Shown here one piece after another: positions 3,003-44,064 of a DNA stretch of 64,000 bases. The position numbers were made by a program, and so were the translations under genes. Source of the DNA: Promethearchaeota archaeon (lineage in GTDB: Archaea; Asgardarchaeota; Lokiarchaeia; Sigyniarchaeales; SOKP01); NCBI GenBank assembly GCA_019057795.1, contig JAHLWS010000070.1:32001-96000 (forward strand). Reading direction: 5' to 3'. The stretch's first letter is position 1; each line of letters begins with the position of its first letter. The notes beneath the pieces were generated by a model. That model was given only the letters and a program-made list of their open reading frames with translations. It made no database searches and was not told the origin of the DNA.

Positions 3003-4154
3003 TTATTGTTCAATTTCGAATATAACCTTAAGATATTCGTATTTAGAATTAAGTAATTTTAGTATATTTTTCGCAATTTTTCTTAGGTTTTGTGCGTGCA
3101 ATGGTTTCTCTTCTGCTTGTTCATCGTAGAAATCATGAATCATCCTTCTTGTTTTATCTACTCCGTTAGCATCCCAAAATTTTTCCCAATGAGTTGAGAT
3201 TCTACAGAGTGATTTTATCTTCTCGTCGGGATATTTAGGTTTATCTAAAATAATATCTTTGTATTTTTTAATAGCTTCGCCAACTTTTTCAAGGTGGTCC
3301 GCAATAGCAAAAGAATAACGATAAATGCTTATTAGATTTGATGTAGTTCTAGTATTTCGTGTATTGGCTGCCTGTTCAAAAGAATTCCATGCATCTAACC
3401 ATTCATTTTTGTGAATACCATCAATGTCATTGTTCACCATTGCTACATTTATAATATCGCTCAAATCTACATCATGACCTCTTTTAATTTTTTTATCAAA
3501 TATTTCCTTAAGACTTGACCCTTCAAGATAGCTCCCCGCCCCAAAATCAAGTAATTGATTAAGATTGTTTGCAGCAAATAATGTTTCGCGTCTAAATTCT
3601 TTAGTGTTAGGATTATTCCATTCAATTGTTTTTTCCCATTCTCCTGTATTTTTATTTTTTATGAAGCTACAATCTCTCAATGTTGAATCCAACAAATTTA
3701 TCTGAAACATCCAAAAATCAATGTCGTCTGTGAATCTTTTCCTTCTCCAATCTCTCGTAGTATACTTACCTAAATAGAGTTTCAATGTACCCCTAACTAA
3801 AGAAAATTTACCATGTTTTAACGCGTCGCGGGCTAATTCACAATAATGGTGATTAGGATCATTTGAACATTCTTCTAGTTTCTTAAGAATTTTACGAGCT
3901 TCTTCAGCTATAATATCACATGGGATACTTCCATCGGAAGGATAAGCTCTTGACCCTCCTTCAATAAAATTTTCAAAAAGTTCAAAATTGTTTTCTGGAA
4001 TCGAATACCAAGGATTATTAAAAGCAGCTTTACTAAAAATGTAATGAGTAAAACCGCTATCGTCTTTCCATGTTTTATCTAGTAGGGGTGAAACATCTCT
4101 GAGGTTATCTCCTTTTTTTACTGCGTCGGCTTTTATATCCCAAATTCCGTTCAT
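3003..4154 (-). CDS. Hypothetical protein, possible nucleotidyltransferase (AbiEii/DUF1814-like fold)
   Basis: 383-aa ORF; RFTDDIDF resembles the R-x-T-x-D-x-D catalytic motif; KKIKRGHDVDLSDI resembles the distal K..R..D..D motif. Confidence 0.5.
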   Translation of the reverse strand: MNGIWDIKADAVKKGDNLRDVSPLLDKTWKDDSGFTHYIFSKAAFNNPWYSIPENNFELFENFIEGGSRAYPSDGSIPCDIIAEEARKILKKLEECSNDPNHHYCELARDALKHGKFSLVRGTLKLYLGKYTTRDWRRKRFTDDIDFWMFQINLLDSTLRDCSFIKNKNTGEWEKTIEWNNPNTKEFRRETLFAANNLNQLLDFGAGSYLEGSSLKEIFDKKIKRGHDVDLSDIINVAMVNNDIDGIHKNEWLDAWNSFEQAANTRNTRTTSNLISIYRYSFAIADHLEKVGEAIKKYKDIILDKPKYPDEKIKSLCRISTHWEKFWDANGVDKTRRMIHDFYDEQAEEKPLHAQNLRKIAKNILKLLNSKYEYLKVIFEIEQ

Positions 4155-14200: not shown

Positions 14201-14313
14201 CGAACTCAGACTTCTTTTATATTTTTCTTTACTTTTATTGATAGATTACAAAAATGAATAAATTTTAAGAAAATAATATTCTAATTCTGCTCAAAAAAGA
14301 TTATAATAACATT

Positions 14314-14742
14314 CTAATTAATAATTACTCTATTTATTAACGTTTTTCCTGCAAGCTGCCAATATTCTACTTGTGCCATTGACATTTTTCCGGGATCGGC
14401 TTGTAAATCCTTTATCTTTGCTTTTAAATTTTCCTCGTCCGGCCAAGCAACATCCACTGATTCATAGGATTCAAGATCCATAATGTTAATTAATGTATCT
14501 TCAATAAAGTTAATCTGTGCAGCACCCTTGATTATCTCGGGAATAGAAACCATATGACCCGATGGTATAGTTAGAGATCTCTTGTTATTATCGAATACAC
14601 CAACACATACGACCCTAACTTTGGCGTGTCCATGTTTTCCTGACTTACTTCTTTCAGTAGCTTTTATAACGCACGGTTCATCATCAACCATAATGTATTG
14701 ACCAGTTTTAAGCTTTTGGACTTCTGTTCTTCTTATGCTCAT
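14314..14742 (-). CDS. eif5a: Translation factor aIF5A/eIF5A
   Basis: Hypusine loop KSGKHGHAK. Confidence 0.95.
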   Translation of the reverse strand: MSIRRTEVQKLKTGQYIMVDDEPCVIKATERSKSGKHGHAKVRVVCVGVFDNNKRSLTIPSGHMVSIPEIIKGAAQINFIEDTLINIMDLESYESVDVAWPDEENLKAKIKDLQADPGKMSMAQVEYWQLAGKTLINRVIIN

Positions 14743-28494: not shown

Positions 28495-29169
28495 ATGCAT
28501 GGCATTGATAAAATAATTATTGAAACTAATGAAATTAGGCTTGAAGCCGAGTTTTTTCAGTTGAGTACAAATATTTCTCAGTCAGTTGTTTTAATTTGTC
28601 ACCCACATCCTCAATTTTTCTGGGTTTAAAGCCCTAAAAAGGGAAAATATGGGGGCAATCTGTATAACAATGTCGTATCTGGCGTTTTTAATATGTGCGT
28701 TCAAAATAAGATTTCATGTTTGCGGTTTAATTTCAGGGGAGTAGGAAGTTCGACTGGAAGTCATACTAGTGGAAATGGCGAGTTAAGCGATGTGAAAGCT
28801 TGTATTGATTTTTTAATAAACGAGAAAAACATTGAAAAAATAATAATCTGTGGTTATTCCTACGGCGCCGCTATCGGGTGTTCTGTTGTAAATTTTTCTG
28901 AGAAAATAATTGGCTATTGTGCGATTTCTTTTCCTTGGGATTTCATGGGCTCAAAATATAAGAAACTTTCTCAAACTAAAAAACCAAAATTGTTTATTCA
29001 AGGGAATCGAGATACTATTGCGCTCTATGAAAATTTTGAAAACCATTATAATTTCTATTTCGAACCAAAAAAATATAAGATTATTAATGGAGCTGACCAC
29101 TTTTACTCGGGATTTGAAGAAAATATCGCACAAGAAGTAAGCGAATTCTACAATTCGATTACAAAATAA
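28495..29169 (+). CDS. Alpha/beta hydrolase interrupted by a 33-nt intron (exons 28495-28613 and 28647-29169; 213 aa if spliced)
   Basis: ATG at 28495 is in frame with the called ORF. The spliced product reads CHPHPQYGGNLYNNVV...RFNFRGVGSSTG...GYSYG (nucleophile)...QGNRD...GADHF. Confidence 0.85.
28614..28646 (+). other. Predicted bulge-helix-bulge (BHB) mRNA intron, 33 nt
   Basis: Helix UCCU 28608-11 / GGGA 28641-44; 3-nt bulges CAA 28612-14 and AAA 28645-47; flanking stems on both sides; in-frame UAA at 28627-29. Confidence 0.8.
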
Positions 29170-42990: not shown

Positions 42991-44064
42991 TTATTCTAAA
43001 TAAAATTTTTCATCAATATTTGAAATTGTTGAATGTTGCGAAAGAAAATTTAATAAAAACTCTCTATCTTCGTTATTTTTTTGTTTTGAGAGTCTAATAA
43101 CGAAACTTAATTCTTCTTCACTTTCTATATCTATCCAGTGTAACCTCTCAAAATATTTTAGAATGTTTAAAAGAAAGTTAGAATCCTTTGAATGGTTTTC
43201 CACTTCTTTTTTAATTAGGTTAAACCATTTATTTTTAACTTTATTATCTTTAAAGCCAATAAATACACCTTTATCCTTCGCCATTTTCATCCACAGGTAA
43301 AAATCCTCATCGTTAATAATTTTATAATAATTTGTCAAAAACGATAAGTTATGTTCTATAAGTTTGAATCGTTCCTTTCTAGCAATTTCTTTACGAAAAA
43401 GTAAATCTGTAGCTATCATATCGAATCTACAATATAAATTTGCTTCAGAAAAGTTTATATCTGTTATTTTGACGCCTAAAACAGCTAGTAAAGCCGCGTT
43501 AAATTTGCAATTCTCAAAAAACAAATTTCTATACGTTCCAATATATTCAAAAACACCTTTAGCGTATTTAGAATTTTCCTCTGTAAAAATATCTATTCTT
43601 ATTTCTTTTGTTAATTTATTCTTTAAATAGAAATTTTTAGCTCTCTCGAACCTTTCCTTTAACTCTCGATAGTCATATGGTTTTAAACCACCTGTAAATA
43701 ACTTTCTAAATCCTAACAAAAATCGAGGAAATTCATGAAAAGTAAAGTTTGTGTATCTATTCGATTTTAAAATGAACTCGTAAAATGGAATGATTCCCTT
43801 GAATGTAAACTGATCGAAAAATTCTTGAGTTTTCTCGTCAACAAATCGTTTAAAATCATCTAAAGTTTTTCCACTTTTAAAACTTTCCATGGATTGTTCC
43901 ATAACATAGTTAAAAAAAGCAGATACGCTTTTAAATCTCTTATCATCTGGATTTTTTCGTTGATTCACTTTAACATATCTTTCTATCCACTCTTTAAGCG
44001 CGGGGGATAAAGATATCGTTTGTTGAGCTGTTTTTTTATTAGATAGATATTTTTTAGTAGTCAT
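42991..44064 (-). CDS. Hypothetical protein, possible N-terminal ribbon-helix-helix
   Basis: 357-aa ORF; QTISLSPALKEWIE...SVSAFF strand-helix-helix pattern. Confidence 0.6.
   Translation of the reverse strand: MTTKKYLSNKKTAQQTISLSPALKEWIERYVKVNQRKNPDDKRFKSVSAFFNYVMEQSMESFKSGKTLDDFKRFVDEKTQEFFDQFTFKGIIPFYEFILKSNRYTNFTFHEFPRFLLGFRKLFTGGLKPYDYRELKERFERAKNFYLKNKLTKEIRIDIFTEENSKYAKGVFEYIGTYRNLFFENCKFNAALLAVLGVKITDINFSEANLYCRFDMIATDLLFRKEIARKERFKLIEHNLSFLTNYYKIINDEDFYLWMKMAKDKGVFIGFKDNKVKNKWFNLIKKEVENHSKDSNFLLNILKYFERLHWIDIESEEELSFVIRLSKQKNNEDREFLLNFLSQHSTISNIDEKFYLE

Follow-up and report, generated by a model that had tools for sequence, protein, structure and literature searches.

Among archaeal protein-coding genes, the described case of a bulge-helix-bulge (BHB) intron is the pre-mRNA of cbf5, encoding a pseudouridine synthase, in the crenarchaeal orders Desulfurococcales and Sulfolobales (Watanabe 2002; Yokobori 2009, PMC2738675). 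There, the cut falls between the second and third residues of the bulge, and a hetero-oligomeric splicing endonuclease (EndA) has been linked to the relaxed motifs of the mRNA (PMC2738675). In the searchable literature, crenarchaeal cbf5 is the only instance of BHB splicing in an archaeal coding sequence (PMC2738675), and introns in other archaeal protein genes are given as "predicted" and unconfirmed. A 2020 study of Haloferax, which called cbf5 the only other archaeal mRNA example, demonstrated by circRNA-seq and in vitro cleavage a 46-nucleotide (nt) BHB intron in the 5' untranslated region of Haloferax volcanii HVO_1309 (PMC7714728). As for Asgard archaea, a preprint describes heavily interrupted tRNA genes and does not treat mRNAs (10.64898/2026.10.13.758758), and no paper on mRNA BHB introns was found in the searchable literature, the coverage of which is incomplete, so that absence is not proven. 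Here, we describe a 33-nt interruption in the coding sequence of an alpha/beta-hydrolase, located at positions 28614 to 28646 of a 64,000-nt stretch of DNA (referred to here as the window) from a Promethearchaeota archaeon (GenBank assembly GCA_019057795.1, contig JAHLWS010000070.1, positions 32,001 to 96,000). We consider it very probable that this segment is an archaeal BHB intron of the cbf5-type mRNA class, in a new phylum and a new gene.

Like the cbf5 intron, the hydrolase interruption is a short BHB element within a coding sequence, with the same cut rule, a relaxed outer helix and, as inferred here, a hetero-oligomeric EndA; it also shows lineage-specific presence and loss and is mis-annotated by gene callers. 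The differences concern the host gene, which codes for a non-essential-looking enzyme and not for an RNA-modification enzyme, and the host phylum (Asgard, Lokiarchaeia). In addition, the hydrolase intron occurs in a single genus of those whose genomes were searched, comes in three lengths, and appears to be one of several in its genome; cbf5 splicing is backed by cDNA and in vitro work, and that of the hydrolase intron is predicted from sequence. With HVO_1309, it would share the condition of being a small mRNA substrate of the tRNA splicing endonuclease; however, the HVO_1309 intron, which leaves as a circle, is situated in an untranslated leader and breaks no reading frame. Archaeal tRNA and rRNA BHB introns, processed by EndA and RtcB, have the same hBHBh' geometry (central helix H, exon-exon helix h, intron hairpin h') and presumably depend on the same enzymes, the difference being that the host RNA is here a messenger.

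The interrupted gene extends along the forward strand from an ATG at 28495 to a TAA stop at 29167 to 29169. Exon 1 (28495 to 28613) runs from the ATG through the CA of a split Gln codon and encodes MHGIDK...LICHPHP(Q), while exon 2 (28647 to 29169) starts with the third base of this codon and continues as YGGNLYNNVV... up to the stop, including a GYSYG nucleophile elbow, an acidic GNRD motif and the His of ADHF. Read without splicing, the frame from the ATG gives MHGIDK...LICHPHPQ, then FFWV, a TAA at 28627 to 28629, SPKKGK, and, still in the same frame, YGGNLYNNVV..., placing the insert exactly between HPHPQ and YGG. Removal of 28614 to 28646 leaves 40 plus 173, i.e., 213 codons. The read-through protein matched PF00561 (Abhydrolase_1, 37.7 bits) and PF20408 (Abhydrolase_11, 34.4 bits) above the cut-off, as well as two homologues of known structure, 3trd (E = 9.5e-22) and 2i3d. 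In both structure alignments, FFWV-stop-SPKKGK stands opposite an exact 11-residue gap between HPHP(L/Q) and (H/F)GG; in 3trd, ICHPHPL is followed directly by HGGTMNNKVV. Judging from the GxSxG elbow, the acidic residue, the His and the domain match, the predicted 213-amino-acid product is a serine alpha/beta-hydrolase with a 3trd/2i3d-like fold. A blastn-short search against the whole genome (4.95 Mb, 31% GC) returned only the insert itself, which is thus no repeat in this genome, and the idea of a mobile element was rejected; its presence in 25 further independently assembled genomes rules out an assembly artefact.

In the RNA, the central helix H is formed by UCCU at the end of exon 1 (28608 to 28611) and GGGA near the 3' end of the intron (28641 to 28644), and is bordered by two 3-nt bulges, CAA (28612 to 28614, predicted cut after 28613) and AAA (28645 to 28647, predicted cut after 28646). 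The intron hairpin h' (28615 to 28640) consists of a U5/A5 stem (28615 to 28619 with 28636 to 28640) and an apical GGGUU/AGCCC stem (28622 to 28626 with 28630 to 28634) closed by a UAA loop, which is the in-frame stop. On the exon side, helix h pairs 28596 to 28607 (CCCACA plus a UUGUC extension, with A28601 unpaired) with 28648 to 28658 (UAUGGG plus GGCAA); its core, 28602 to 28607 with 28648 to 28653, contains one C-A mismatch. The order of the elements is that found in tRNAs: the 5' strand of h, H, the 5' bulge and h', followed by the 3' strand of h', H, the 3' bulge and h. If each bulge is cut behind its second nucleotide, 28614 to 28646 is excised and CA is joined to A, which rebuilds CAA (Gln), so that the predicted spliced junction is CATCCTCAA joined to TATGGGGGC and the predicted protein would span ...LICHPHPQYGGNLYNNVVSGVFNMCVQNK across it.

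An earlier interpretation of this locus from its letters (the sequence-only reading) had proposed the same intron, and all of its coordinates and RNA elements were found where it had placed them. The Gln codon that it expected from second-nucleotide cuts likewise held, the junction HPHPQYGG matching intronless orthologues and Protein Data Bank homologues. The word "strict" that it applied to the BHB had to be dropped, given that the outer exon-exon helix carries a conserved mismatch beside its first pair; the window allele has a 4-bp H, two 3-nt bulges and both flanks, with h relaxed. In order to evaluate how often such geometry arises by chance, the insert was shuffled with the exons fixed, accepting any frame-restoring register within 6 nt that offered a 4-bp helix, two 3-nt bulges, an h' of at least 4 bp and a comparable h. 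Only 276 of 200,000 shuffles (0.14%) passed.

We then read 41 orthologous junctions in 39 of the 42 species genomes of the genus. The insert was present at the same codon in 26 orthologues and absent from the other 15, which read HPHP(Q/E/L/S)(Y/F)GG, precisely the junction predicted for the spliced message. Insert length was 33 nt in 19 alleles (one of them partial, at a contig end), 30 nt in 3 and 31 nt in 4. Although the 31-nt forms shift the frame, removal at the bulge sites restores a full-length open reading frame (ORF) of ca. 212 codons in every complete allele, and with this one cut rule the frame is recovered whether the insert has 30, 31 or 33 nt. The in-frame stop also differs by species, being TAA, TGA or TAG. 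Three different stops together with frameshifting forms exclude readthrough, insertion of selenocysteine or pyrrolysine, and an altered genetic code. Among the homologues searched from other genera of the same order, there was no interruption. In our reading, the presence and absence of the inserts, their lengths and their stops make sense only if they are spliced from the mRNA.

The alignment of orthologues that the sequence-only reading had put forward as a check came out in its favor, both in the presence and absence of the insert and in the BHB pairing: all 26 inserts keep UCCU/GGGA with 4 of 4 pairs, the two 3-nt bulges, and an h' with 4 or more contiguous pairs. Of the 5' bulges, 25 are CAA and one is GAA (L027, giving a Glu codon; one uninterrupted relative likewise has Glu), and the 3' bulge is AAA except for AAG in four relatives, where the resulting CAG retains Gln. 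Within the exon-exon helix, 4 to 5 of the 6 pairs are formed, the first (A-U) being invariant and the third varying between A-U, G-C and G-U. Covariation was analyzed in an alignment of 24 sequences (A1). The proposed structure pairs 84% of the cells, compared to 42 to 67% when the 3' partners are slid by 1 to 3 columns, and changes on both sides occur in 8 pairs. Cells with double changes numbered 29 among these related alleles, a value reached by none of 500 shuffles (11.6 ± 4.0 expected). Half of the pairs of the intron helix h' (5 of 10) show compensatory double changes; at one of them, 11 sequences have U-A and 10 have C-G. RNAalifold, unprompted, recovered both H and h', as well as the 5' bulge of 3 nt. 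Along similar lines, the third base of the Pro codon, which pairs with the intron, is T in 26 of 26 interrupted alleles, while C, A or G appears in 5 of the 15 uninterrupted ones; in sequences that are not independent, this bias is suggestive of a tie to intron pairing.

The interrupted genes also appear to be maintained. Using pairwise NG86 ratios of nonsynonymous to synonymous substitutions (dN/dS) for 24 intron-bearing and 15 intronless aligned alleles, we obtained 0.16 (interrupted) and 0.19 (uninterrupted) for exon 2 and 0.36 and 0.30, respectively, for exon 1, with synonymous divergence (dS) among alleles of up to ca. 1.5. GYSYG and ADHF were invariant in all of the alleles analyzed. The Gly-Gly codons just past the junction showed third-position (synonymous) changes only, and in most alleles no start codon precedes them; in the window allele, there is none between the intron TAA and the ATG at 28693, 15 codons past the junction. 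These conserved Gly-Gly codons, with no start before 28693, imply that exon 2 would be translated in the frame of exon 1, which needs exact removal of the insert. Thus, by their substitution pattern, the interrupted genes are predicted to be functional and under purifying selection on both exons. The proposal of a BHB intron in the hydrolase gene is thereby backed by the presence/absence polymorphism, the three lengths, the three stops, the covariation of h' and selection downstream of the insert.

Several observations count against this interpretation or add little to it. The plain folding energy is unremarkable (minimum free energy of −20.3 kcal/mol, z = −1.95), and the BHB-constrained fold lies about 1.3 kcal/mol above that minimum. 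The C-A mismatch, at the second pair of the exon-exon helix, is shared by all relatives and leaves the 3' bulge weakly closed. The central helix and both bulges are invariant and give no covariation signal, partly because the Pro and Gln codons force this invariance, and the related sequences are non-independent, so that the shuffle statistics on covariation overstate significance. The exact 27-mer of the spliced junction (window clade) had no match in JGI metagenome contigs. A degenerate junction pattern retrieved 32 stretches from the same contigs, of which 9 matched the hydrolase by blastn. Identity to interrupted alleles did not exceed 72%, and the closest stretch resembles an uninterrupted clade (85% to L012). 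Nor did the protein collection contain any full-length protein near-identical to an interrupted allele, the closest full-length entries being at 73 to 77%. Finally, a genome-wide census of BHB geometry combined with ORF restoration gave ca. 5,500 hits, as many as were obtained in controls after sliding the 3' partner by 1 to 5 nt, and its junction peptides matched paralogues no more commonly than in the controls. Filters for codon usage and start codons left a weak excess (e.g., 23 versus 10). Without an excess, the intron class is not abundant enough to stand out without homology, although the census demanded a good exon-exon helix and exons of at least 25 codons, which real cases (a thiolase, see below) fail, so that it is uninformative on abundance.

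Among the alternatives, the one that survives best, though still very unlikely, is a split gene, in which a 44-residue N-terminal peptide and a C-terminal fragment, initiated internally at the GGNM Met or beyond it, are produced without splicing and may or may not assemble. Most relatives do have an ATG four codons past the junction, which gene callers use, and purifying selection on both parts would also fit a protein in two pieces. In the window allele, however, this Met is Leu (CTG) and the first ATG is the one at 28693. The YGG(N/D/S) codons before the Met are conserved at the protein level, with synonymous changes, yet would be untranslated, and the Met is equally conserved among uninterrupted genes. 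A split gene also leaves unexplained the BHB geometry, the covariation and the restoration of the frame by three lengths at the bulge cut sites. The annotation of these genes in public databases follows the ATG four codons past the junction: among the records P0002 to P0036, the proteins from interrupted alleles are truncations of 168 to 169 amino acids starting at the Met past the junction, except that the NCBI call P0004 (179 amino acids) begins within the intron, at an alternative start codon (MPRKGKYGG...). That gene callers would miss the intron, as had been anticipated, is borne out by these truncated entries.

We regard as highly improbable any bypassing or recoding of the insert during translation, of the kind known from T4 gene 60 and from the "byp" elements of yeast mitochondria, as well as readthrough of the stop. 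The likeness to bypass elements (T4 gene 60; Magnusiomyces "byps") is superficial: short structured inserts with stops, here in a hairpin, within a coding sequence and invisible at the protein level. Bypass acts on the ribosome and needs matched take-off and landing codons, whereas in all alleles of the hydrolase these are unmatched, CAA/GAA (or CCU) preceding the insert and AAA/AAG preceding exon 2; moreover, the stop is not next to the take-off site. Readthrough, already excluded by the three stops and the frameshifting 31-nt forms, would lengthen the conserved HPHPxxGG loop by 10 to 11 residues that homologues lack. A pseudogene, or a gene decaying after a small hairpin insertion with a coincidental BHB shape, is strongly disfavored and has next to no chance of being correct: every interrupted allele does contain an in-frame stop or frameshift, and U/A stems arise easily from an AT-rich insert in a genome of 31% GC, but interrupted alleles are found in 26 lineages at a dS of ca. 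1.5 with a dN/dS of 0.16 to 0.18, invariant catalytic motifs and full-length ORFs, a chance BHB occurs in 0.14% of shuffles, and the stems covary.

Returning to the BHB intron, the genome encodes the enzymes that would process it (coordinates are given as contig:position). A PF01974 profile search found two EndA-like ORFs of ca. 200 amino acids, at C69:74212 and C74:72339. The first has as its best PDB match 3p1z_B, an Aeropyrum EndA chain, and retains Tyr, His and Lys; the second, a paralogue, has Ser aligned at the position of the catalytic His. The pair suggests an (alpha-beta)2-type EndA, a type reported to accept relaxed motifs (PMC5829648; PMC2738675). RtcB (PF01139) is encoded at C70:112485-113792. 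The host had been taken for an Asgard archaeon, and indeed, the nearest public records are metagenome-assembled genomes (MAGs) of Promethearchaeota/Lokiarchaeota, e.g., Loki_b31 at 98%. ARAGORN detected 18 tRNA genes in this genome, which is scored 100% complete, and 10 of the 18 have introns. Probably, many tRNA genes are too interrupted for detection, and the low count fits the preprint on Asgard tRNA genes cited above.

The mechanism that we propose, in which cutting, joining and the subunit architecture of EndA are all inferred, would be as follows. In the pre-mRNA, UCCU at the end of exon 1 and GGGA at the 3' end of the intron would form the 4-bp central helix with its two 3-nt bulges, with the intron hairpin and the weaker exon-exon helix stacking on either side. 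The splicing endonuclease, composed of the catalytic EndA and its His-less paralogue, would cut after the second nucleotide of each bulge; RtcB would ligate CA to A, giving CAA (Gln) and restoring the motif HPHPQYGG, and the intron would be released, probably as a 33-nt circle. Without splicing, translation would end after 44 residues. This process resembles the splicing of HAC1/XBP1 (Ire1 plus tRNA ligase or RtcB) in that a short mRNA intron is removed without a spliceosome, by an endonuclease and a tRNA-type ligase, and the protein is altered. In contrast, Ire1 recognizes paired stem-loops instead of a BHB and is regulated by stress, while for the hydrolase intron there is no sign of regulation. 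That splicing might gate expression in the manner of HAC1/XBP1 is speculation.

The history of the intron was studied on a maximum likelihood tree of 39 spliced proteins, which requires at least 5 changes of intron state. Forcing the interrupted alleles into one clade cost 93.8 log-likelihood units (approximately unbiased test, P = 1e-8); they are not monophyletic, which implies repeated exact loss or gain. Since the inserts have sequence in common (TTTYT at the start, a AAGAAAGGGAAAA-like end), the simplest reading would be a single early gain in the genus followed by several precise losses, with repeated gain or allele exchange as a possible alternative history. Losses of such precision might point to recombination with spliced RNA that had been reverse-transcribed. 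No function of the intron itself is indicated.

The sequence-only reading had also suggested scanning the genome for further inserts, with a divided outcome: the census did not separate from its controls, whereas a paralogue screen yielded about seven cases. This screen, in which every long ORF was compared to the genome by tblastn in search of paralogue alignments broken by short inserts, reaches multi-copy families only. In all, predicted BHB mini-introns were confirmed in Elf1 and three further genes, two more genes being less regular candidates. The Elf1 gene, ca. 5.4 kb past the end of the window, has a 32-nt BHB insert on the forward strand (C70:101393-101424; H = CCAA/UUGG, bulges ACA/AUU), removal of which rebuilds the CPNC zinc knuckle. 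Of the genomes of the genus, 21 have an uninterrupted Elf1 gene, 9 have one with a 30-nt in-frame insert that includes TAA, and 7 have a frameshifted one; the central helix of Elf1 shows a compensatory change, from CCA/AUGG to CCG/ACGG. A thiolase on the reverse strand of C45 has inserts of 29 and 31 nt (ca. 14366-14394 and 14275-14305) that make three exons, the middle one of 60 nt, with H = UCGU/GCGA and GGAG/CUCU and a weak exon-exon helix. Three other 30-nt in-frame inserts with a stop are bridged by paralogues: in a second thiolase (C11:~43775-43804, forward; H = CUGG/CCAG, h = CUUCU/AGAAG), in a gene at C65:69693-69722 (forward; H = CGUG/CACG, 9-bp h') and in acs, encoding acetyl-CoA synthetase (C75:~67880-67910, reverse), within DTYWQ-TETGG, where H is only 3/4 paired. 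In a Zn-dependent alcohol dehydrogenase (C78:~126073-126112, forward), an insert breaks up the CGICGSD motif. Splicing at its textbook BHB (UGUG/CACA, 9-bp hairpin) would take out 32 nt and lose the frame, while homology needs 30, and the only register that removes 30 nt has a G-A mismatch in its central helix. Whether the hydrolase intron is one of a population of ca. 30-nt BHB introns in ordinary genes (metabolic enzymes, Elf1, thiolases, acs), gained and exactly lost over short evolutionary times, is in our view evenly poised.

Other loci gave different pictures. The only hppA copy found in the genome (C56:31605-33584, reverse) is one open frame of 738 codons, in which PF03030 positions 1 to 624 are matched without stops. 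Two HdrA-like genes (C5:~44409 and C42:~34099, both reverse) have a lone in-frame stop in FPTDDC(G/S)I-stop-(V/I)L, aligned to Cys-rich paralogues, and these stops look like selenocysteine codons rather than introns. Within the window, Rfam and ARAGORN returned no matches, and a candidate for a second intron near 3965 on the reverse strand was discarded as noise, sitting within an intact ORF of 383 amino acids.

The hydrolase provides a well-supported case in an ordinary Asgard enzyme gene, with at least a handful more in the same genome. Public proteins derived from interrupted alleles are ca. 44 residues short and lack the HPHP oxyanion-loop motif, and a bias is to be expected in the pathways reconstructed and the "pseudogenes" counted in Asgard MAGs. 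The polymorphism (26 interrupted versus 15 uninterrupted orthologues) and the three insert lengths constitute a natural experiment on the gain and loss of BHB introns, and mRNA splicing may belong to normal gene expression in the lineage that is closest to eukaryotes.

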